A stretch of DNA of 64,000 nt, taken from Eubacteriales bacterium. GTDB lineage: Bacteria; Bacillota; Clostridia; Oscillospirales; CAG-382. Below the pieces are notes generated by a model, which did no database searches, was not told the origin of the DNA, and was given only the letters and a program-made list of their open reading frames with translations. Every line of letters starts with the position of its first letter. The stretch's first letter is position 1. The stretch is taken from positions 7,816-71,815 of the forward strand of contig JAZTXJ010000046.1 of assembly GCA_045636285.1 (NCBI GenBank). The letters run 5' to 3'. This document shows positions 1,902 through 44,539 of the stretch, piece after piece. A program made the position numbers and the translations under genes.

Positions 1902-2346
1902 TAACCGTCACCCCGCTTCCGAGCGTGTTTTCGAGATAAGCCGAGGTGCGTTCCGCGAAAGCGAAATCCCCGCCCGAAAGCGCGACCGTCACCTGCTCGA
2001 TTATCGGCTCTTCCTTATCCCAATCTATTCTTATGTCGGTATACAGCACCTTTATTCCGAATTCCGCAAAAACGATTTGCGATATATATTCCTCGGCGCG
2101 CTCCTCTGCCATTTCCGAAGCGAGCGCATAAAGCTCCGAGCCGCACTCTGCGGAATATGAATATTCGTCGCCGACGTAATCGGAAATTTCCGAAAGCTCA
2201 AGCTCCCTAAACGGCGAAATCATAATAACCATACAAACGAGCGAGGCTATGTACTTGACGTATTTTTCGAACCCGCCCCACGCGAGCAGAGTGCAGACCG
2301 TTCCGCAGACAGAGGCGGTAAGCAAAGCAAGAAAATATGAGCTCAT
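1891..2346 (-). CDS. spoIIIAF: stage III sporulation protein AF
   Basis: 151 aa with two N-terminal TM helices. It sits between spoIIIAE and spoIIIAG and overlaps both neighbours. Confidence 0.75.
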   Translation of the reverse strand: MSSYFLALLTASVCGTVCTLLAWGGFEKYVKYIASLVCMVIMISPFRELELSEISDYVGDEYSYSAECGSELYALASEMAEERAEEYISQIVFAEFGIKVLYTDIRIDWDKEEPIIEQVTVALSGGDFAFAERTSAYLENTLGSGVTVIEG

Positions 2347-3437
2347 ACCGTAATCCCCGTTTTAATAAACACCGCAAGCGCGATAATGCATACCGCGCCC
2401 GCACCGCAGGTAAGCGCGAGCAAAACACCCGTAAGCCCGCCCAAATCGTATAAAAACGCGCTTTCGCGCTCACAGCCGAGCGTTTTCGCACAGATTCCGC
2501 AGGCGGTGAGCATTAATCGGTGAAGCACGACCGCGATTATGGGCGGAAGCACCGCCGAAAGCACCAAAACCACCCCCGCCGCGCCCACCGTGCCCTTCAC
2601 CACCGAAACCGAGGCGATCACCGTGCGCGAGGCTTCGCCGAGCATACCGCCGATAACCGGCACGAAAACCCCGCTTGCGAATTTTATGCTTCGCGTAACG
2701 TAGGTATCGCCCGCGGAAGCAACGCTTGTCTGCAGGTAAAGCGCAAAGCCGAGCAGAGAAAACAAAAAAGCCATAAGCGTTGTCGCGGTGTTTTTCACAA
2801 GGCTCGTCACCGCGCTCAGATTCACGCTCTGCGGTACCGCACCGCAAAGACAGAGCGCGAACGATATTTGCAGAAGCGGAAGAAGCACCTTTGTGCAGAT
2901 ATTCGAAAGCACGGTAAGAAAAAGCGTAAGCCCCGCACCGCTTGCCGCGCCCGCGCCCACCGTTCCGCCCATTGCGTGAAGCGAAGCCATTATCGGCATA
3001 AGCGAGCTCATCGCAAGATTCAACGCCTCCATCGAAGCGATAATATATATAAATAAATTGTAGAAAACCGAATAAGTCACACCCGAGAGGGCAAGCACCG
3101 AAATATAGCGGCAAACAGGCGAAAGTATTCCCGAATCCGAAAAATCAAAGGCGTTCATAACTCCGGAAAGCAAAATGACCGAAATCACCGCGCCGAACGA
3201 GCGCAAAAGCGAGCCGCCCTTGCCGTTAAGATAATCGGTGATTATTATTACCGCCTTTTCGAATACATTTATGCTTTTATCGCCCGAAAGCTCGTCCCTC
3301 GAAAGATATTCGTTTTGGATCTCTTCTGCGTTTGCGGCGTCGGCAATGCTTTGCGCCTCTTCGGAATATGCGCTCGCGTTGACCGCCGTGAGCATTAACA
3401 GCAGAAGAACGAAAATCGGTATCAGCGTTTTTTTCAT
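2343..3437 (-). CDS. spoIIIAE: stage III sporulation protein AE
   Basis: 364 aa with a signal peptide, then a polytopic Gly/Ala-rich membrane domain. Order in the operon fits. Confidence 0.85.
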   Translation of the reverse strand: MKKTLIPIFVLLLLMLTAVNASAYSEEAQSIADAANAEEIQNEYLSRDELSGDKSINVFEKAVIIITDYLNGKGGSLLRSFGAVISVILLSGVMNAFDFSDSGILSPVCRYISVLALSGVTYSVFYNLFIYIIASMEALNLAMSSLMPIMASLHAMGGTVGAGAASGAGLTLFLTVLSNICTKVLLPLLQISFALCLCGAVPQSVNLSAVTSLVKNTATTLMAFLFSLLGFALYLQTSVASAGDTYVTRSIKFASGVFVPVIGGMLGEASRTVIASVSVVKGTVGAAGVVLVLSAVLPPIIAVVLHRLMLTACGICAKTLGCERESAFLYDLGGLTGVLLALTCGAGAVCIIALAVFIKTGITV

Positions 3438-3817
3438 TTCAGCAGATCCTTTGCGATTTCAAAAAGCTGTTGTATTACGGGCAGGCTTATTAAAATTATC
3501 CCAGCCTTCCCCGCAAGCTCGATATGCGCTCCGAGCGCGCCCTCTCCGCAATCGCGGCAGATTTCCGATGAAAGCTTACAGCAAAAGGATATTGCGAGCG
3601 CCTTTATCATAAGCGCGAAATAGCTTGCAAGCCCTTGCTCCTCCGCTATCCCGCGTACGAGCGAAATAAACGGCGCGACGGATTCCGCCGCATAACCGAA
3701 AATAAGCACCGCGGAAACGGCGGAAGCGAGCTCGGCAAGCTCGGGGCGCAGTCTTCTTATCGTTGCGATCGCGCAGGCGGCGGCTATTCCGAACCCGCAC
3801 AGTGCCGTAATACTCAC
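3434..3817 (-). CDS. spoIIIAD: stage III sporulation protein AD
   Basis: 127-aa membrane protein with a 4-nt overlap to spoIIIAE. Confidence 0.85.
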   Translation of the reverse strand: MSITALCGFGIAAACAIATIRRLRPELAELASAVSAVLIFGYAAESVAPFISLVRGIAEEQGLASYFALMIKALAISFCCKLSSEICRDCGEGALGAHIELAGKAGIILISLPVIQQLFEIAKDLLK

Positions 3818-4008
3818 AGCCCGAAAACGCTTTTAAGCGTCGAAAACAGCGTGCTTATTTCCCCCGCGAGCAGAAGCATTGCGATTATCACACCCGCAAC
3901 GGTAACAAAGGTTGCCTGCTCGTCGCGCCCGCTTTTTTGAAGTATCTGGCAGGCGACGCTCACCACAATGCCGATGCCCGCTATTTTTAATACAAGTGAA
4001 ATCCCCAC
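3814..4008 (-). CDS. spoIIIAC: stage III sporulation protein AC
   Basis: 64 aa. The motif KIAGIGIVVSV is like B. subtilis SpoIIIAC (QIAGVGIVVA). Confidence 0.85.
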   Translation of the reverse strand: MGISLVLKIAGIGIVVSVACQILQKSGRDEQATFVTVAGVIIAMLLLAGEISTLFSTLKSVFGL

Positions 4009-4018
4009 AGCTTTGCTC

Positions 4019-4504
4019 CTATAAGAGAATTATTGCCGTTATAAGTCCTATGATAAGGCAGACGGTTTTGGTGCTTTTCTGCTTTTCGGGAAGCGTTTTC
4101 GCCGCGCTGTTCCGCGCGCCCTCGAGCATTGCAATACAGCCGTCGAGCCGTTTTAATTGTTCGTCGAGCGGAAGGCTTCCGAGCGCTTCCCCGAACAAGC
4201 ACAGCTCGCGCTTTACTCCGTTTTCGATAAAAAGCAGCTCTACCGCTTGGCGCCACACACTGCCGAGCATCGCTCTCTGCGAGCGCAAAAGCGGAAGAAA
4301 GCCGCATTTTTCGAGCCGTTCGTTTTCGTATTCGGCGAAAATACGGTATAGCGGTATCCGCTCGCCGTATATCCTTCTCCGCATACAGCAAAGGAACGAA
4401 ACGAGCGCTTCGAGCGTGAACAGTCTTTCCTTCTCGCCCGCGGCGAGCATCGCGCCCGCCGTATAGGAGCAGAGCGTTAAAGCAATCGCGCCTATCCAAT
4501 TCAT
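4019..4504 (-). CDS. spoIIIAB: stage III sporulation protein AB
   Basis: 161 aa with TM helices at both termini. It sits between spoIIIAA and spoIIIAC. Confidence 0.8.
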   Translation of the reverse strand: MNWIGAIALTLCSYTAGAMLAAGEKERLFTLEALVSFLCCMRRRIYGERIPLYRIFAEYENERLEKCGFLPLLRSQRAMLGSVWRQAVELLFIENGVKRELCLFGEALGSLPLDEQLKRLDGCIAMLEGARNSAAKTLPEKQKSTKTVCLIIGLITAIILL

Positions 4505-5382
4505 AAAAGCTCCCTCGAAATTACGGCACAGCGATCGGCGTTCAGCGTCACAAACAGCGAAAACACGCCCGATTCGATAAGTCCTTTAAGCCTGCCGCGC
4601 TTCAAAAGCGCGCCTGCGCTCTCGCAATGAGCCGAAGCGATAAGCGTTACACCCGTGTTTTGCGCCTCGGCAACCGCTTCCGCTTCGGATGCGCTTATTT
4701 CATCGCATATTATTATTTCGGGCGACATCGTTCTCGTAAGCATGGTTATCGCCTGCGCCTTCGGTATGCCCGAAAGTATATCGCAAAGCCCGCCGACCGC
4801 CGTCCCCGCCGCGATTTCACAGCGCTCGTCGGCAATACAAACCCGCTTCGGCGCAATGCCCGTCCCGCCCGAAAGCAGATAAGCGGCACTGCGCAGGAAC
4901 GTGGTTTTCCCCATTGCGGGGGGCGAGCACACCAGCGCAGAGCAGATTCCGTTTTGCGAAAAATACCGCACGAGAGGGCTTGCGGCGTTCGGAATAAGTC
5001 GGTGCAATCTTATCGAAACCGAGCAGATTTCGGCAAAGCCGCCCTTGCCGTCCGACCTTCCGCACACCCCTGCCCTGCCGCCCTCGGCAAGCGGAATAAA
5101 CCCCTGTGCGATAAATTCGTCGCAGGTATAGCGCGAGCTTTCGGTCAGCCGAAGCAGACATTCGTTAATTTCCTCCGCGCTTGCCTTTAACGCTTTTTGT
5201 ATCGGGCAGAGCACGCCGTTTTCGTCGAAGGTTATATTTCTCTGCCCTGCGGTTGCCGAAACCGCCGCCCCTTTTCTCAGACGAATTTCGTCTAACGCTT
5301 CGAATATTTCGGGCGGGAGCAGATGAACCGCGCGCGATATGCGAAGCGGCAGATAACGGAAAAGAAGTTCGGACGTGTTCAT
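4501..5382 (-). CDS. spoIIIAA: stage III sporulation protein AA (AAA-type ATPase)
   Basis: 293 aa with Walker A SPPAMGKTTFLRS and Walker B IIICDEI. It is the first gene of the spoIIIA cluster. Confidence 0.88.
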   Translation of the reverse strand: MNTSELLFRYLPLRISRAVHLLPPEIFEALDEIRLRKGAAVSATAGQRNITFDENGVLCPIQKALKASAEEINECLLRLTESSRYTCDEFIAQGFIPLAEGGRAGVCGRSDGKGGFAEICSVSIRLHRLIPNAASPLVRYFSQNGICSALVCSPPAMGKTTFLRSAAYLLSGGTGIAPKRVCIADERCEIAAGTAVGGLCDILSGIPKAQAITMLTRTMSPEIIICDEISASEAEAVAEAQNTGVTLIASAHCESAGALLKRGRLKGLIESGVFSLFVTLNADRCAVISRELL

Positions 5383-6917
5383 CGCTTCAGCCTTTCGGCA
5401 AGCGCCTTTATACGCTCAAACGCGAACAGAAGCAGAAACAGCGCAAACACGCCGATATATACCGCCGTACCCGCCGCCGCGCCCGCCGTGCGCGATAACG
5501 GAAAGAGCTTTAGCAAACCGCGTGCCGCAACCCCCGAAGCAAGCGCGCTCACGAGCGGAAGCGTTATATCGGTCACCCAGCGCGGCTTTATTCCCGTTAC
5601 CTTAAAGAGCCTTATTCTGCAAAGCAGATATGTAAAGGTGTTTGAAATCACGAGCAGCCACAGATAACCCCTGTCCCCCGTGCGCGAAACGAGCAAAAGT
5701 ATCAAAAGCACGCGCAGAACCGAATTGTATACCGAAAATTTAAGCGTCTGCACCTGCTCGCCTATCGCCTTTAAAAGCCCGTCGCTCACCGTTTCGACGT
5801 ACATAAACGGCGTAACGAGCGAAAGTATCTTTATCGCGCCCGCCGTATTTCGGTTGGGATAAAAGGCTTCTCCGATTTCGTAGCTCAAAAAGAAGAACAT
5901 TCCCCCTACCGCCACCGAAAGAATAGAAACGAACGACATTATCGAGCTTATTCTCGCATACAGCGGACGTCTGTCGGAAAGCAGGTTCAAACGGCTTATT
6001 TCGGGTGTAAAAACCGAAACAAGACTTGCCAGAAATGCGAACGGGAAAAAGAGTATCGGCACGACCATTCCGCGTATCATACCGAACTGCGAAAGCGCGT
6101 ATCCTCTGTCGCCCGAATAGCTTTCGAAAACATAGGGAATAAGCAGGGTTTCGGCTGTGTGCAGAATACTCGTAAGATAAACCGAAAGCGAAATCGGAAG
6201 CGTTACGCTTATAAGCGAGCGCATGCTGTCGGCTCGGCTTTCGGTCGGCTTGTCGCCGCTCCTTCTTCGGTTCGGAATAACGCAGAACAAGAGCAGATAG
6301 GTAAACGAGCAGATTTCCGAAACCGTAACCCCCGTCACTATCCCCGCGCAAAGCGTTCCTATATCGTCCGAGCCCGACATTATGATATTCAGAAACAGCG
6401 CTATAACCGAAATTTTCACGATTTGCTCGAAAAGGCTTGCCGACGAAGTCACCGTCACCCTCTGCTTCGCGATAAACCAACCCTTCAAGCAGGCGGCGAT
6501 CGCCATAAACGGCATACTGAGCGCGAGTATGCGAAGCGGCTGTGCACAGCGCGCGTCGCCGAGAAATTTAACCGCCGTAATATCGGCAAAGCCGAGCATA
6601 AGCACCGTCGCCGCAACGCTTATCACCGCCGAGGCGGCAAACGAATTGTTGAGCAGCAAACGCGCGTCGCTCCCGCTTCGCTCGTTCTTTTCGGCAACAA
6701 GCCGCGAAACCGAAACGGTAAAGCCCGCTGTCGCAAAGGTGGAAAACATTGTATAAACACTCATAATAAGCTGATAGAGCCCCATGCCCTCGCTTCCGAT
6801 ACGCGACGAAAGAAACAGTCTTAAAAATACGCCCAAAAGCTTGTTTATGAGCGAAAACACCGTCATCGCCGCCGCACCCTTTATGAGTACGCCCGCTCTG
6901 CCTTTTATATCGATCAC
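5379..6917 (-). CDS. spoVB: MOP-superfamily flippase, SpoVB-like (stage V sporulation protein B)
   Basis: 512-aa polytopic protein. The N-terminal pattern GSEGMGLYQLIMSVY...ATAGFTVSVSRLVAE parallels B. subtilis SpoVB. Its stop overlaps the spoIIIAA start by 4 nt. Confidence 0.7.
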   Translation of the reverse strand: MIDIKGRAGVLIKGAAAMTVFSLINKLLGVFLRLFLSSRIGSEGMGLYQLIMSVYTMFSTFATAGFTVSVSRLVAEKNERSGSDARLLLNNSFAASAVISVAATVLMLGFADITAVKFLGDARCAQPLRILALSMPFMAIAACLKGWFIAKQRVTVTSSASLFEQIVKISVIALFLNIIMSGSDDIGTLCAGIVTGVTVSEICSFTYLLLFCVIPNRRRSGDKPTESRADSMRSLISVTLPISLSVYLTSILHTAETLLIPYVFESYSGDRGYALSQFGMIRGMVVPILFFPFAFLASLVSVFTPEISRLNLLSDRRPLYARISSIMSFVSILSVAVGGMFFFLSYEIGEAFYPNRNTAGAIKILSLVTPFMYVETVSDGLLKAIGEQVQTLKFSVYNSVLRVLLILLLVSRTGDRGYLWLLVISNTFTYLLCRIRLFKVTGIKPRWVTDITLPLVSALASGVAARGLLKLFPLSRTAGAAAGTAVYIGVFALFLLLFAFERIKALAERLKR

Positions 6918-6923
6918 TCCGTT

Positions 6924-8120
6924 TTATTTTCTGAACAAAAGGGTGGTAAACAGCTTGGAAAGCAACGAAAAATAAGAAATCTCCGCTATATCCTCGTCGA
7001 CATATATACAGGTGCGCCCCACAAGCTCGTTTTCGCGGTAATAGGAAACGGTCCCCACCTCTTTCCCGCGCGTTGTCGGCGCTTCAATGCTTTCGCAAAG
7101 CTCGATTTTCGCTTCGAGCCCGCCCTTTGCTCCCTTTTCGGTAAGAATGGTTATCGGCTCCGCTATAAGCCTTGCCGAATCCTTGACTCCTCGCTTTACC
7201 TTCAGCGGCTCTAAATTCGGAAGCTCGGGCGTGATGATTGCATAGTTTGCAAATCCGTAATCGAGCAGTCCCTTTGCCGCGGCAAAGCGTTTATCGCTCG
7301 TTTCGGCGCCCAGAACAACGGCAATAAGCTTCATTCCGTCGCGCTCCGCCGTGCCCGAAAGGCAATATTTCGCTTCGCCAGTGAACCCCGTTTTCATTCC
7401 CGTCGCGCCCTTGTAAAAGCGAATGAGCTTGTTCGTGTTCGCCAGCCCGAAGCTGCCGTTGCGAATGGTGTCCATCCATATTTTCGTGTAGTTGAATATA
7501 AGCTCGTGCTTCATCAGCTCGCGCGTGATGATCGCGACGTCAAGCGCGCAGGAATAGTGGTTTTCGGCGGGGAGTCCGTTCGTGTTCACGAAATTGCTGT
7601 TTTCGCAGCCGAGCTCGCGCGCTCGCTCGTTCATCGCCTGAACGAACGCCGATTCGCTCCCGCATATATATTCCCCCAGCGCGACGGTCGCATCGTTTGC
7701 CGAAACGACAACGAGCGATTTAAGCAGATCGTTTACCGACATCTGCTCGCCCGGCTCCAAAAACACCTGCGAGCCGCCCATGCTTGCCGCGTATTCCGAA
7801 ACGGTCACGCTGTCGTTAAGCGTTATTTTTCCGCTGTCTATCGCTTCGACAACAAGAAGCGTGCTTATCACCTTCGTGACCGAGGCGATGGGAAGGTGCT
7901 CGCGCTCGTTTTCGGCAAAAAGCACTCTGCCGGTTGAATATTCCATTAAGAGCAACGCCTTCGCGCTTCCGTCGCTCACGTATTCCGCGCCCGCGGGCTC
8001 AAACCAGAAATCGCCTATTTCGGCATCGTAAGGATAAACGGCGGCTTGCTCGGTCGCGCCCGCCGTGATCGACGGAAAAATAAAAACAAGGGAAAGCAAT
8101 ACGGATATTAGCTTTTTCAT
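6924..8120 (-). CDS. D-alanyl-D-alanine carboxypeptidase (PBP5 class, DacB/DacF-like)
   Basis: Has a signal peptide, an SxxK motif (ASVTKV), an SGN-like motif (SANDA) and a KTG motif (MKTGFTG), plus a PBP5-type C-terminal domain. Confidence 0.85.
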   Translation of the reverse strand: MKKLISVLLSLVFIFPSITAGATEQAAVYPYDAEIGDFWFEPAGAEYVSDGSAKALLLMEYSTGRVLFAENEREHLPIASVTKVISTLLVVEAIDSGKITLNDSVTVSEYAASMGGSQVFLEPGEQMSVNDLLKSLVVVSANDATVALGEYICGSESAFVQAMNERARELGCENSNFVNTNGLPAENHYSCALDVAIITRELMKHELIFNYTKIWMDTIRNGSFGLANTNKLIRFYKGATGMKTGFTGEAKYCLSGTAERDGMKLIAVVLGAETSDKRFAAAKGLLDYGFANYAIITPELPNLEPLKVKRGVKDSARLIAEPITILTEKGAKGGLEAKIELCESIEAPTTRGKEVGTVSYYRENELVGRTCIYVDEDIAEISYFSLLSKLFTTLLFRK

Positions 8121-11692: not shown

Positions 11693-12420
11693 GAATGCTC
11701 GCATTTGCAAGCCGAAACACAAAAGAAATCCTGCGCGACCCGCTGAATCTCTTCTTCGGGCTCGGCTTCCCTCTCGTTCTGATCGTGCTGTTAAGCGCGA
11801 TTCAGGCGAATATCCCCGTTTCGCTTTTCGAAATACAGCGGCTTACACCGGGCGTTACGGTTTTCGGCTTGGCGTTTATGACGCTGTTTTCGGCAACCGT
11901 TATCGCAAAGGACAGAGGAAGCTCGTTGCTCCAACGTCTTTATACCACTCCCCTCACCCCGATCGATTTTATTCTCGGCTACACACTGCCTATCGTTCCG
12001 ATCGCGGTCGCGCAGTCCGTTGTTTGCTATATCGCGGCGGTCGTTCTCGATCTGAACGTTACGCTCGGTATTTTGTATTCGGTTTTGTTTACCGTGCCGA
12101 TTTCGGTTCTTTATATCGCGTTGGGTCTGCTTTGCGGAAGCGTGTTTAACGATAAACAGGTCGGCGGTATCTGCGGTGCTCTGCTCACCAACCTTTCCGC
12201 TTGGCTTTCGGGCATTTGGTTCGACCTTGAGCTTGTCGGCGGCGTTTTCAAAAAAATCGCGTATGCGCTTCCGTTCGTTCACGCGGTCGAGCTTCAGCGC
12301 GCCGTGCTTGCAGAAGATTTCGCAGGTATTTTCCCGCATTTGTGGTGGGTGCTCGGATATGCATTCGTCCTGCTCGCCGCGGCGGTGCTGCTCTTCCTGC
12401 GCCAAATGAAAAGGCAGTAA
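11689..12420 (+). CDS. ABC-2-type transporter permease
   Basis: 243 aa with six predicted TM segments and a 4-nt overlap with the ATPase gene. Confidence 0.8.
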   Translation: MRMLAFASRNTKEILRDPLNLFFGLGFPLVLIVLLSAIQANIPVSLFEIQRLTPGVTVFGLAFMTLFSATVIAKDRGSSLLQRLYTTPLTPIDFILGYTLPIVPIAVAQSVVCYIAAVVLDLNVTLGILYSVLFTVPISVLYIALGLLCGSVFNDKQVGGICGALLTNLSAWLSGIWFDLELVGGVFKKIAYALPFVHAVELQRAVLAEDFAGIFPHLWWVLGYAFVLLAAAVLLFLRQMKRQ

Positions 12421-12463
12421 AAGGGTAAAAACTCATAGAGAAAGCAAGGCTGTTTTCCAAAAT

Positions 12464-12505
12464 AAAAAAATCAAGCTTCACCGTAAAAATGAAGCTTGAT
12501 TTTTC
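12464..12505 (+). terminator. Rho-independent terminator of the TetR-ABC operon
   Basis: Perfect 10-bp stem TCAAGCTTCA/TGAAGCTTGA flanked by an A-run and a T-run. Confidence 0.75.
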
Positions 12506-12592
12506 TGTTGCCCTTTTATTTCAAGGGCGCAAAAAGCGGTCCCCGAAAATGCTTGTACTTTTGGGGTGTATTAAACCGTTTCGCCGCGCTTT

Positions 12593-12615
12593 AAAAACCA
12601 CCGCGGGTGGTTTTT
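12593..12615 (-). terminator. terminator of the Asn/Gln microprotein gene
   Basis: AAAAACCACC-GCG-GGTGGTTTTT. The TAA stop lies inside the 5' arm on the minus strand, and a T-run follows. Confidence 0.65.
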
Positions 12616-12784
12616 ATCGGTTCTGGTTGTTCTGATTGTTCTTATTCTGGTTGTTGTGGTTATTCTGGTTGTTCTGGTTGTTCTGACGGTTTTGCTCGTT
12701 CTTATTGTTCTGGTTGTTCTTGTTCTGATTGTTCTGGTTGTTCTGATTGTTCTTGTTCTGGTTGTTCTGGTAATCCTTGTTCAT
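12614..12784 (-). CDS. 56-aa Asn/Gln-rich microprotein (MNKDYQNNQNKNNQNN...QNNQNR), unannotated in the ORF track
   Basis: ATG at 12784 with AAAGGAG 7 nt upstream. It has 56 sense codons and a TAA stop, with a terminator directly after and a promoter-like element upstream. See findings. Confidence 0.6.
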   Translation of the reverse strand: MNKDYQNNQNKNNQNNQNNQNKNNQNNKNEQNRQNNQNNQNNHNNQNKNNQNNQNR

Positions 12785-12821
12785 AAATATTCTCCTTTAA
12801 TGATTTGTCCTTATAAGACAA

Positions 12822-12854
12822 GAATAGTTTGCCTGTTTTCCGAACAAACTATTC
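12822..12854. promoter_or_regulatory. perfect 10-13-10 palindrome that reads GAATA-N18-CAAACTA on both strands (forespore sigma-G/F-like promoter or operator)
   Basis: GAATAGTTTG at 12822-12831 is the exact reverse complement of CAAACTATTC at 12845-12854. It lies between the divergent microprotein and amidohydrolase genes. Confidence 0.45.
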
Positions 12855-12885
12855 ACGGAAAATATTTTTTCGGGGAGAGAGAAAA

Positions 12886-14022
12886 TTGCTTTTAATAAAA
12901 AACGGAACGCTTTTTACAATGGAAGCAAACGAAGCGATACGCGCCGATTTGCTTGCGGACAAGGGAAAAATCATACAGATTTCGCCCGATATTGCCCCCA
13001 CCGAGCGTATGGAGATTATCGATGCGGCGGGACTGCGGGTTTATCCGGGGTTTATCGACGCGCACAGCCATATCGGTATTTCCGAGGAGAAGAAAACACA
13101 CCAAATCGACGAAAGCAACGAAAACACCAATCCGATAACGCCCTGCGTTCGCGCAATCGATGCGATCAACCCGATGGACAGCGCGTTCCACAACGCACTC
13201 GCGGCGGGCATAACGGGGGTAATGGCGGGCCCCGGCAGTGCAAACCCTATCGGCGGTCAGTTTGCCTTTATAAAAACCCACGGCAGACGGATAGACGATA
13301 TGACGGTGCTCGCCCCTTCGGCGATGAAAATAGCGTTCGGCGAAAACCCGATGACAAATTACGGCACGAACGGAAATATCCCCTCTACGCGTATGGGTAT
13401 CGCCTCGCTTATCCGCGAGGAGCTTTCTCTTGCAAGAGATTATTTTTCGAATACGCAAAGCGCGAACGAATTCGGTATGGAGTGTTACAGAGAGCTGTTC
13501 GAGGGCAGAATTCCGCTTAAAGCGCACGTTCACCGCGCCGACGATATATTCACCGCAATCCGTATCGCAAAGGAATTCGGGCTGGGGCTGACGCTCGATC
13601 ATTGCACGGAAGGGCATCTTATTGCCGATAAGATTGCCGAAAGCGGTTTTCCCGCCATTGTCGGACCCTCGCTTGCTTCGAGAAGCAAAAACGAGGTGGA
13701 AAATCTCGATTTCAAAACCCCTGCTATATTGCAAAAGGCGGGTGTTACGGTCGCGCTTACCACCGACCACCCCGTTTCTCGCATACAGTATCTTCCGCTT
13801 TGCGCGGGGCTTGCCGTTAAGGAAGGAATGAGCGAATGGGGTGCCTTACGCGCAATAACCGCCGATGCGGCGCGTATATGCCGTGTCGATAACCGATTGG
13901 GCAGCTTGAAGGTCGGCAAGGACGCCGATATCGTCATAACCGACGGCAGTCCGCTCGAAATAGCCACCGCCGTGAAATACACGCTGGTCAACGGAACTGT
14001 CGCGTGGCGCAGAGAGGAATAA
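12886..14022 (+). CDS. metal-dependent amidohydrolase family protein
   Basis: LLLIKNGTLF...GFIDAHSHIG (HxH metal motif) and a C-terminal GSLKVGKDADIV. Start is taken at TTG 12886 behind GGGGAGAG, rather than the upstream ATG 12829. Confidence 0.8.
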   Translation: MLLIKNGTLFTMEANEAIRADLLADKGKIIQISPDIAPTERMEIIDAAGLRVYPGFIDAHSHIGISEEKKTHQIDESNENTNPITPCVRAIDAINPMDSAFHNALAAGITGVMAGPGSANPIGGQFAFIKTHGRRIDDMTVLAPSAMKIAFGENPMTNYGTNGNIPSTRMGIASLIREELSLARDYFSNTQSANEFGMECYRELFEGRIPLKAHVHRADDIFTAIRIAKEFGLGLTLDHCTEGHLIADKIAESGFPAIVGPSLASRSKNEVENLDFKTPAILQKAGVTVALTTDHPVSRIQYLPLCAGLAVKEGMSEWGALRAITADAARICRVDNRLGSLKVGKDADIVITDGSPLEIATAVKYTLVNGTVAWRREE

Positions 14023-43682: not shown

Positions 43683-43762
43683 AATAATCGCCTCTGTTTC
43701 ATTTTTTTGGTTTGAATATATAAATGTTTTTTTGCAAAAATATATAAAAAGGAGTGATTTTT

Positions 43763-44539
43763 TTGAAGCTTTTGAAATTTATTACCGCCTGCCTGCTCGC
43801 CGTTGCCTTTTTATCGGGCAGTGCAGACGCGAGCTCGGATACCGAGCGGTTAGATTGGTTTTATAAAACCCGCGGCGAAAACGAGCGCCCCGATATTATG
43901 GGCGGAAGTATGCCCAAGGGAATCGAAAATTCGCTTTTTATCGGCAACGAGGGCGATAAAACCGTTTATCTTACCTTCGATGCGGGCTATTCGAACGAAA
44001 ACGTCGAAAGCATACTCGATACCCTGAACGAGAAAGGCGTTAAAGCCGCATTCTTTATTTTGCCCGGAATTATTAAAAACAGTCCCGAAGCGGTAAAGCG
44101 CATGGCGGACGAGGGGCATTTGGTTTGCAACCACACGACAAGCCACGGCGACGTTTCGAAAATAAACGACATCGAGCAGTTCAAGCGCGAGCTTTGCGGA
44201 GTCGAGGAAAAATACTTCGAGCTTACGGGAAAGGAAATGGAAAAATATTTCCGCCCGCCCGAGGGTGCTTTTTCCGAAAAAACGCTCGATTTTTGCGCTT
44301 CTCTCGGCTATACCCCTGTTTTTTGGTCGTTTGCTTATGCCGATTGGGATAACGGCAAGCAAATGCCGCCCGAAAAGGCTAAAAGCAAGGTGCTTTCGCA
44401 AATGCACGACGGTGCGGTGCTTCTTTTACACCCGACAAGCGCGACCAACGCAAAGATACTCGGCGATATAATCGACGAGCTTTCCGCCCGCGGTTATTCC
44501 TTCGGCACGCTCGACGAGCTTAAAGACAAGTTGCGATAA
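43763..44539 (+). CDS. pdaA: polysaccharide deacetylase, PdaA-like (spore-cortex delta-lactam de-N-acetylase)
   Basis: Has a signal peptide, plus LTFDAGY, NHTTSH and LLHP motifs and a LDWFYK-type N-terminus. Start is taken at TTG 43763 behind GGAGTGAT. The ORF-track GTG at 43754 overlaps this SD by 1 nt and lies inside its GTGAT extension. Confidence 0.75.
   Translation: MKLLKFITACLLAVAFLSGSADASSDTERLDWFYKTRGENERPDIMGGSMPKGIENSLFIGNEGDKTVYLTFDAGYSNENVESILDTLNEKGVKAAFFILPGIIKNSPEAVKRMADEGHLVCNHTTSHGDVSKINDIEQFKRELCGVEEKYFELTGKEMEKYFRPPEGAFSEKTLDFCASLGYTPVFWSFAYADWDNGKQMPPEKAKSKVLSQMHDGAVLLLHPTSATNAKILGDIIDELSARGYSFGTLDELKDKLR

Follow-up and report, generated by a model that had tools for sequence, protein, structure and literature searches.

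Can a reading frame made up almost entirely of asparagine and glutamine codons be a real gene, and if it is, what would its product be for? A locus of this kind lies in contig JAZTXJ010000046.1 of an Eubacteriales bacterium (assembly GCA_045636285.1), in the 64-kb stretch of DNA that was analysed here as a whole and that we call the window. The minus strand of the window carries, at 12614..12784 with the stop included in the coordinates, an open reading frame (ORF) of 56 codons, as taken from an ORF listing and its translation. A first-pass annotation had read this ORF as an unannotated gene for a microprotein, built like the genes of small acid-soluble proteins of the spore (SASPs). We present evidence that its product is probably a small spore protein of a kind not described before, and that in many spore-forming Clostridia the microprotein gene adjoins a gene for an amidohydrolase, a pairing that the first-pass annotation had missed.

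The layout of the gene is compact. The start codon ATG occupies 12784..12782 and the stop codon TAA 12616..12614, and a Shine-Dalgarno (SD) sequence, AAAGGAG, at 12798..12792 ends 7 nucleotides (nt) 5' of the ATG, all on the minus strand and all as first described. The frame translates to MNKDYQNNQNKNNQNNQNNQNKNNQNNKNEQNRQNNQNNQNNHNNQNKNNQNNQNR (MNKDYQNNQNK...NQNR). Counting codons gave 31 Asn, 13 Gln, 5 Lys and 2 Arg, with one residue each of Asp, Glu, Tyr, His and Met; Asn and Gln thus make up 79% of the peptide and no aliphatic residue follows Met1, in agreement with the composition initially reported. This corresponds to a nitrogen density of about 2.0 N atoms per residue. The AlphaFold2 (AF2) model of the peptide contained no confident structure (predicted local distance difference test score, pLDDT, 57.6; predicted template modelling score, pTM, 0.22), and the microprotein is likely a disordered peptide as judged from this model. 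At the 3' end, a terminator-like hairpin, AAAAACCACC-CGC-GGTGGTTTTT (12615..12593, minus strand), overlaps the stop codon; it has a 10-bp stem and a 3-nt loop, with the U-run inside the 3' arm. The terminator proposed at this position was borne out in part: the hairpin appears in the minimum-energy RNA fold of the 3' region, but it escaped a generic terminator scan, its U-run being paired with the A-run. The overall order of promoter, SD, small ORF and terminator stands as the first-pass annotation had it.

Direct searches with the peptide are blind to its relatives, presumably owing to low-complexity corrections, and for this reason the divergently oriented amidohydrolase gene next to it was used as the search handle. 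This yielded 80 loci from a one-genome-per-species collection, each from a different GTDB species, in which small ORFs were sought by a six-frame scan followed by a scan at a lower threshold. An Asn-rich small ORF was found directly adjoining the amidohydrolase gene in ~50 of the 80 loci, and no further Asn-rich small ORFs were found elsewhere in these loci or in the window. According to the record titles, the carriers include Oscillospiraceae, Lachnospiraceae, Christensenellaceae, Sedimentibacter, Ruminiclostridium, Sporobacter, Clostridium and Candidatus Epulonipiscium. The two genes are mostly divergent, but convergent in two loci (L030 and L076) and in tandem in two others (L048 and L069), so that the adjacency is kept through four gene arrangements; no other neighbouring gene is conserved in the loci.

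Family members (n = 46) are 31-82 amino acids (aa) long with a median of 53.5, and their pooled composition is 53.5% Asn, 17.6% Gln, 8.5% Arg, 5.0% Lys, 3.8% Asp and 2.9% Glu. The share of Asn plus Gln ranges from 52 to 90%, and uninterrupted runs of these two residues reach ~34 (in L004). Net charge is positive in 45 of the 46 members, and TAA serves as the stop codon in 38. The repeat unit varies by lineage (NNQ, NNR/NND/NNE, NNDLRNK, NSQ, NKME), yet the Asn richness, both termini, the SD and the promoter are kept, and what is conserved is therefore the amino-acid character and not a DNA repeat.

Some features of single members or of the termini are recorded here as observations in their own right. 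Arg ends the peptide in 33 of 46 members, among them 16 of the 27 distant ones, although it accounts for only 8.5% of residues overall; this Arg usually has Asn before it and TAA after it. Many members also have one aromatic residue or Cys among their first 5-12 residues. One locus (L010, 3898-3963) holds only a 21-codon microprotein remnant (MQKNYADNSRNQ..., MQKNYADNSRNQKSLTAVFRS), with the forespore-type motif before the amidohydrolase gene still in place, and appears to represent a recent loss by deletion. In Clostridium aminobutyricum DSM 2634 (L069, 3729-3902), a variant rich in Asn, Met, Lys and Glu (MENKMNNRMENKMNNK...) lies in tandem upstream of the amidohydrolase gene and has its own terminator.

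The pattern of variation among relatives bears on whether the frame is translated. Seven relatives could be aligned gap-free, and over their codons 2-11 the column entropies summed to 0.99, 0.59 and 8.75 at codon positions 1, 2 and 3, respectively. Asn is spelt by AAC and AAT alike, and Arg by up to 5 codons. The AAC fraction was 0.70 in the small ORF compared to 0.47 in the adjacent amidohydrolase gene and was higher in the small ORF at 34 of 43 loci (Wilcoxon p = 1.7e-6), the excess being most striking in AT-rich genomes; this enrichment would fit selection for efficient translation. Of the 46 members, 44 have an SD 6-12 nt upstream of the start. Judged by these statistics, the minus-strand frame is under protein-level constraint.

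Two other readings of the same DNA were weighed against these results, namely that the tract is a non-coding 9-bp microsatellite, or that the coding frame is the antisense Leu/Val-rich ORF (12656..12895, plus strand) that the first-pass annotation had set aside as an artefact. Tandem Repeats Finder (TRF) indeed reported a 9-bp period over the region (17.9 copies), the antisense frame is necessarily open, and gene callers called no gene at the microprotein locus. However, the repeat is degenerate, with a 73% match, and the variable third positions of the minus-strand frame are the first positions of the antisense frame. The repeat units, moreover, differ among taxa as described above, and no frameshifted or stop-interrupted orthologue was seen in the ~50 loci. 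The antisense ORF starts with GTG, lacks an SD and, in the window, extends across the promoter into the start of the amidohydrolase gene. Repeat-length variation in multiples of 3 is a weak test of frame, because the DNA period is 9; the codon-position and codon-choice statistics are stronger, and by these both the microsatellite and the antisense reading were rejected. We consider it very improbable that the locus is anything other than a gene for this peptide, and hold the microprotein gene to be real with near certainty, as had been claimed from the single sequence.

We then consider when such a gene would be expressed. Upstream regions aligned on the start codon show two conserved boxes. 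The pattern G[ACT]AT[AG]-N16-19-[ACG]ANN[ACT]T[AT], taken in sense orientation within 130 nt of the start, was present upstream of 43 of the 46 small-ORF starts, against a mean of 5.3 and a maximum of 10 in shuffles; its background frequency was 5.8% among 5168 real 130-nt windows and 10.8% among AT-rich ones. The spacer is 17 nt in 20 loci and 18 nt in 22, and in most cases 19-43 nt separate the end of the -10 box from the start codon. Columns left free by the pattern are conserved as well: 38 of 42 loci have T ahead of the -35 G, and 40 of 42 have A at position 4 of the -10 box. The family consensus reads TGnATA-N17/18-(C)A(A/T)A(A/C)TA. In the window, the -35 box TGAATA (12850..12855, minus strand; its GAATA at 12854..12850) is separated by 18 nt from the -10 box CAAACTA (12825..12831), which ends 40 nt before the ATG. 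This is the element that had been likened to the sigma-G consensus of the forespore, and the likeness extends to the family: the consensus is, by its sequence, of the type that the literature gives for forespore sigma factors, and it resembles mapped sigma-G promoters of C. difficile such as TGTATA..CAATAATA and TGAATA..CAACAATA (Saujet et al. 2013, Table S6).

When both strands of the whole window were scanned with a stringent version of the motif, it turned up three times. The first copy precedes the microprotein ORF. The second (TGAATA-N17-AAAAATA followed by an AGGAG SD, 43713-43764, plus strand) precedes a pdaA-like polysaccharide deacetylase ORF (43754-44539; TIGR02884, 257 bits, just under the 298-bit cut-off) and, apart from the first, is the one well-placed copy; the literature counts pdaA among the genes of the sigma-G regulon. 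The third copy, inside the end of a gene next to dapF, is probably due to chance.

In the window, the -35 and -10 boxes (GAATA and CAAACTA) form the two arms of a 10-bp inverted repeat, GAATAGTTTG-N13-CAAACTATTC (12822..12854 on both strands, arms 12822-12831 and 12845-12854), which the first-pass annotation had overlooked. Read on the plus strand, the same promoter thus faces the amidohydrolase gene, with GAATA (12822-12826), an 18-nt spacer and CAAACTA (12845-12851) ~34 nt before its start, and the inverted repeat is a candidate bidirectional forespore promoter. The two-way match is common to ~17 close relatives. In distant loci the palindrome is lost, yet the two boxes persist with their 17/18-nt spacing and their distance from the start codon; few of these loci have a match on the opposite strand, among them three of Sedimentibacter (L027, which is S. 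saalensis DSM 13558, L033 and L041), where it lies ~28 nt before the amidohydrolase start.

These results also bear on the alternative that the small protein is real but not specific to sporulation, being instead a vegetative or stress-induced hydrophilic peptide, with the boxes an operator or a chance resemblance. That the boxes are palindromic in the window and its close relatives, like a repressor operator, speaks for this alternative. However, the persistence of boxes, spacing and start distance where the palindrome is gone led us to reject the palindrome as a repressor operator, and the scarcity of opposite-strand matches in distant loci points the same way. In addition, a generic sigma-70 promoter scan found no promoter facing the microprotein ORF, and the pdaA-like gene of the window carries the same motif. 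We regard a role outside sporulation as quite unlikely, and expression of the microprotein in the forespore as likely from the promoter motif, though less firmly so than the existence of the gene.

The amidohydrolase gene (12886..14022, plus strand) encodes 378 aa from a TTG start, with an SD, GGGGAGAGAG, read at 12872..12881. Its product matches Pfam Amidohydro_1 and Amidohydro_3 (PF01979, PF07969) above cut-offs, while all matches to NCBIfam equivalogs are far below theirs. The closest solved structure is 3ooq of the Protein Data Bank (PDB), an uncharacterised protein of Thermotoga maritima, with a full-length sequence match (E 2.6e-99); the AF2 model came from a shallow alignment (pLDDT 46), and the structural relation rests on this sequence match. 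H60, H62, K148, H214, H239 and D294 are invariant across 24 homologues and, from the superfamily layout, are taken as the metal ligands. Similarity to dihydroorotases, prolidases (Xaa-Pro dipeptidases) and Arg carboxypeptidase (2qs8, 3feq, 3be7) is partial and weak.

Forespore-type motifs also precede the enzyme gene: 28 of 48 pair loci have one (5.8 expected), as do 10 of the 28 loci that lack the small ORF (3.3 expected). In 17 Lachnospiraceae-type loci of the latter kind (L026 and 16 others, of Eisenbergiella/Robinsoniella type), two genes precede the amidohydrolase gene on the same strand: one is spoIID-like (TIGR02870, 176 bits where the cut-off is 234.75), and the other encodes an M23 peptidase that matches SpoIIQ only weakly (45 bits, cut-off 250). 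In C. difficile, CD2841, a 'putative amidohydrolase', is sigma-G-dependent and was detected in spores; we liken it to the present enzyme by description only. The mapped promoter sequence of CD2841 had no matches in metagenome contigs.

The following mechanism would accommodate these observations. The microprotein gene would be transcribed in the forespore late in sporulation, like ssp genes, and the peptide would accumulate in the spore core as an acid-soluble, disordered and nitrogen-dense polymer. Its breakdown at germination would yield Asn, Asp, Gln and ammonia, the role that gamma-type SASP has in Bacillales, and the co-located and often co-regulated metal-dependent amidohydrolase would be the likeliest partner in mobilisation, attacking a peptide or amide bond. 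Taken as a whole, and with its weight on the reality of the gene and its forespore expression, this account is the best explanation we can offer, and we hold it slightly more probable than not. The part that makes a reserve and mobilisation system involving the amidohydrolase is more tentative and falls short of an even chance.

The main rival shares the gene and its forespore expression but makes the peptide a physical protectant or matrix, such as a Q/N-rich prion-like gel, a reversible amyloid or a glass formed in the dehydrated spore core, which would hold in place or shield what the core contains and would dissolve at germination. The high Asn and Gln content and long N/Q runs of members such as L004 would suit such a material, as would the lack of a predicted fold, and the N-terminus MNNNYQNNQN resembles the zipper peptide of Sup35, GNNQQNY. 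In most members, however, Lys, Arg, Asp and Glu break up the sequence every few residues, which together with the positive net charge favours solubility, and the conserved enzyme neighbour is left without a role. Precedent in spores cuts both ways: the Asn-rich repeats of GerG, a C. difficile protein, drive spontaneous gel formation in vitro but are dispensable for the function of GerG (PMC5241399). We consider the protectant reading unlikely, though it deserves more weight than the others set against the reserve.

A reverse search started from the peptide side, using a degenerate (QNN)n DNA pattern in metagenomes, and returned 120 loci (L082-L201). Most of what it found was unrelated NNQ tracts; the amidohydrolase was absent from all 120 loci, and roughly five family-like ORFs were recovered. 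Exact (QNN)n-coding DNA is common in aquatic metagenomes, both in long ORFs and in short microsatellite-like tracts, and is unrelated to the clostridial family. On one metagenome contig (L169, 1295-2811), an N-rich microprotein ORF that the contig end truncates (MNNQNKNQNQNNQ...) lies directly after spoVAD-spoVAE on the same strand; both spo genes score above NCBIfam cut-offs, and GGATA-N17-AAAAATA stands upstream of the N-rich ORF. A second ORF (L170) has GCATA-N17-AAAAATA, an SD and a strong terminator, and a third (L161) lies near a weak CwlD-like amidase match (TIGR02883; 75 bits, cut-off 221.55). As far as gene order can tell, the canonical forespore operon context of L169 strengthens the link to sporulation and weakens an obligatory partnership with the enzyme.

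Several points weigh against the reserve account. At least two to three family-like ORFs (L161, L169, L170) have no adjoining amidohydrolase, so the partnership is not obligatory; the enzyme gene lacks the peptide gene in ~30 of the 80 loci, and its family also occurs in Thermotoga (3ooq), which does not sporulate. All pair loci were ascertained through the amidohydrolase, and linkage was thus measured one way only. The link to CD2841 is one of annotation. The terminator in the window is weak by generic criteria, and by a crude test a terminator-like hairpin is present in only 21 of 46 family loci. The forespore assignment comes from sequence motifs, in which sigma-F and sigma-G are inseparable, and the present results would suit a reserve, a protectant or another role alike.

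Some of these points bear equally on a further alternative, in which the peptide would act mainly through the amidohydrolase, either as its dedicated substrate (by deamidation or removal of the C-terminal Arg) or as a stoichiometric inhibitor or chaperone that silences the enzyme in the dormant spore. The adjacency kept in four arrangements across orders of Clostridia, with no other neighbour conserved, would fit such a role, as would the frequent C-terminal Arg and the Xaa-Pro dipeptidases and Arg carboxypeptidase among the weaker PDB relatives. But the peptide without the enzyme, and the enzyme without the peptide, each argue against it, and the carboxypeptidase-type similarity is partial and weak; we regard it as improbable. 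Among the roles, we therefore rank a reserve as most likely, a protectant or matrix former as the main rival and an enzyme-centred role as a lesser one.

The remainder of the window agrees with the earlier statement that it contains sporulation genes. A sporulation gene cluster spans 2343-8120 on the minus strand. It comprises spoIIIAA (4501-5382), spoVB (5379-6917), a gene (6924-8120) whose product is a DacF-like D-Ala-D-Ala carboxypeptidase, and an ORF (2343-3437) that matches spoIIIAE weakly (76 bits, cut-off 247). Between an ABC-2 permease gene (ending at 12420, plus strand) and the microprotein gene, a strong hairpin with a 19-bp stem and A-/T-run flanks at 12460-12500 looks like a bidirectional terminator, and a second hairpin, GCCCTT/AAGGGC, lies at ~12510-12530. 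An Rfam scan of the region gave only sub-threshold chance matches (rimP leader, CrcZ), and an RNA-family identity was rejected on this ground.

The family appears to have escaped annotation so far. The peptide matched no families in Pfam-A or NCBIfam (hmmscan), no PDB model matches the peptide family, and neither an exact-sequence look-up nor phmmer searches against 5.8 billion and 1.84 billion proteins, which penalise low complexity, gave a match. This silence is weak evidence of absence, because composition-bias corrections make such searches insensitive to sequences of this kind. Ten family peptides, including that of the window, are absent from ~15 billion predicted proteins, and in all not one of 11 members tried was present there. 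For the window's genome, a public protein collection holds the amidohydrolase (P0001, 100% identical), while the sense product and two antisense ORF products that were tried are all absent from it; in a second genome (L081, GCA_054291365.1), a 74-codon N-rich ORF was left uncalled in the deposited gene calls. In two public genomes with the amidohydrolase on record, neither strand of the microprotein locus was called. Full-text literature searches found no description of the microprotein family, in line with the initial impression that it belongs to no described one, and GerG was the only Asn-rich spore protein retrieved.

Small size and low complexity thus make an annotation blind spot, and trypsin-based proteomics would miss the peptide too, so that a potentially abundant spore component may have stayed invisible. 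The family is present in many uncultured gut Oscillospiraceae and Lachnospiraceae-type organisms. Its extreme composition bears on how cells tolerate and use poly-Asn and on the physical state of the spore core, and the conserved pairing offers a way into an uncharacterised amidohydrolase subfamily with a solved structure, 3ooq. It is conceivable, at rather less than even chance, that these microproteins form an unrecognised class of spore proteins in many gut and environmental spore-forming Clostridia: ribosomally made, nearly pure poly-Asn/Gln forespore counterparts of gamma-type SASP that store nitrogen and amino acids, possibly form a core matrix, are mobilised by a dedicated, co-regulated amidohydrolase and were missed by gene callers and proteomics.

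How do the microproteins compare with known systems? Gamma-type SASP (SspE) is likewise small, hydrophilic, repetitive and Gln/Asn-rich, and is likewise encoded by a monocistronic gene with a strong SD and a terminator. Sigma-G transcribes the SASP genes (PMC3533761), and SspE is broken down at germination, supplying amino acids (PMC7649253). SspE is absent from all clostridial genomes examined (PMC3533761), so its niche is open in Clostridia, and the microprotein family is a concrete candidate for its role there. The microprotein nevertheless differs from SspE in several ways. It has no sequence similarity to it (no Pfam or NCBIfam match, including SASP_gamma/TIGR01442), and its composition is far more extreme, with 55% Asn. 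It lacks a cleavage site of the GPR type (E-F/I-A-S-E type) and contains no Ala, Ser, Phe or Ile, each of which is below 3% in the pooled family; and an amidohydrolase gene is its conserved neighbour. High levels in spores and breakdown at germination are features of SspE that we would predict for the microprotein. If it is a reserve, it is most likely a functional analogue of gamma-type SASP and not a member of that family.

The alpha/beta-type and minor SASPs (SspA-D/F, Ssp4, SspH, SspI, Tlp, SspK-P) are alike in gene size and architecture, in the type of forespore promoter and in their basic, acid-soluble character. The microprotein differs from them in having no family-model match and no predicted helix-turn-helix DNA-binding fold, and a regular-expression search over the six frames of the window did not find the alpha/beta signature K-x-E-[IVL]-[AS]-x-E-x-G, also in the form ending -[LFMI]-G. 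DNA binding by charge alone is possible given the positive net charge, but no motif supports it. By sequence, then, the microproteins fall outside every known SASP family.

Other small-peptide classes fit less well. Hydrophilins are defined by high hydrophilicity together with Gly above 6%; the microproteins are very hydrophilic, but Gly is 0.3% in the pooled family and zero in the window peptide, which sets them apart from hydrophilins and from late embryogenesis abundant (LEA)-like proteins. Leader-peptide attenuation was rejected on the grounds that the ORF is equipped with a terminator and has no gene behind it on the same strand, and a precursor of a ribosomally synthesised and post-translationally modified peptide (RiPP) or bacteriocin was rejected as the peptide lacks both a leader and a Cys, Ser or Thr core. 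Cyanophycin, with cyanophycinase and isoaspartyl dipeptidase, offers a parallel in that both are nitrogen-dense polymers of Asx and basic residues, storage being a proposal for the microprotein; cyanophycin, however, is made non-ribosomally, whereas the microprotein is gene-encoded. The last step of cyanophycin breakdown uses a dipeptidase of the amidohydrolase superfamily (IadA type), but no IadA structure was among the PDB matches of the amidohydrolase, which is not detectably an IadA orthologue.

Like Q/N-rich prion-forming domains such as the N domain of yeast Sup35, the microprotein combines an extreme Asn and Gln bias and short NNQ/QNY-type motifs with no predicted stable fold, the combination that marks prion-like sequences and that is known here from the sequence and the AF2 model. 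It differs in being bacterial, 31-82 aa long, a complete protein instead of a domain, and regularly punctuated by charged residues. GerG (CD0311) is spore-associated and predicted to be prion-like, with Asn-rich low-complexity repeats whose copy number varies between strains (PMC5241399). It is much larger, its predicted prion-forming domain alone covering aa 43-270 and the repeats forming only a central region; Asn makes up ~30% of it, alongside Met, Pro, Ser and Gly. The protein is confined to C. difficile and acts on the incorporation of Csp proteases. The N/M-rich variant of C. aminobutyricum recalls the GMPNNMSNNMNSNM repeats of GerG, which was compared by description only. Set beside these systems, the microproteins are best described as an unannotated and undescribed family within the small forespore proteins, with an unprecedented composition and a conserved enzyme neighbour.

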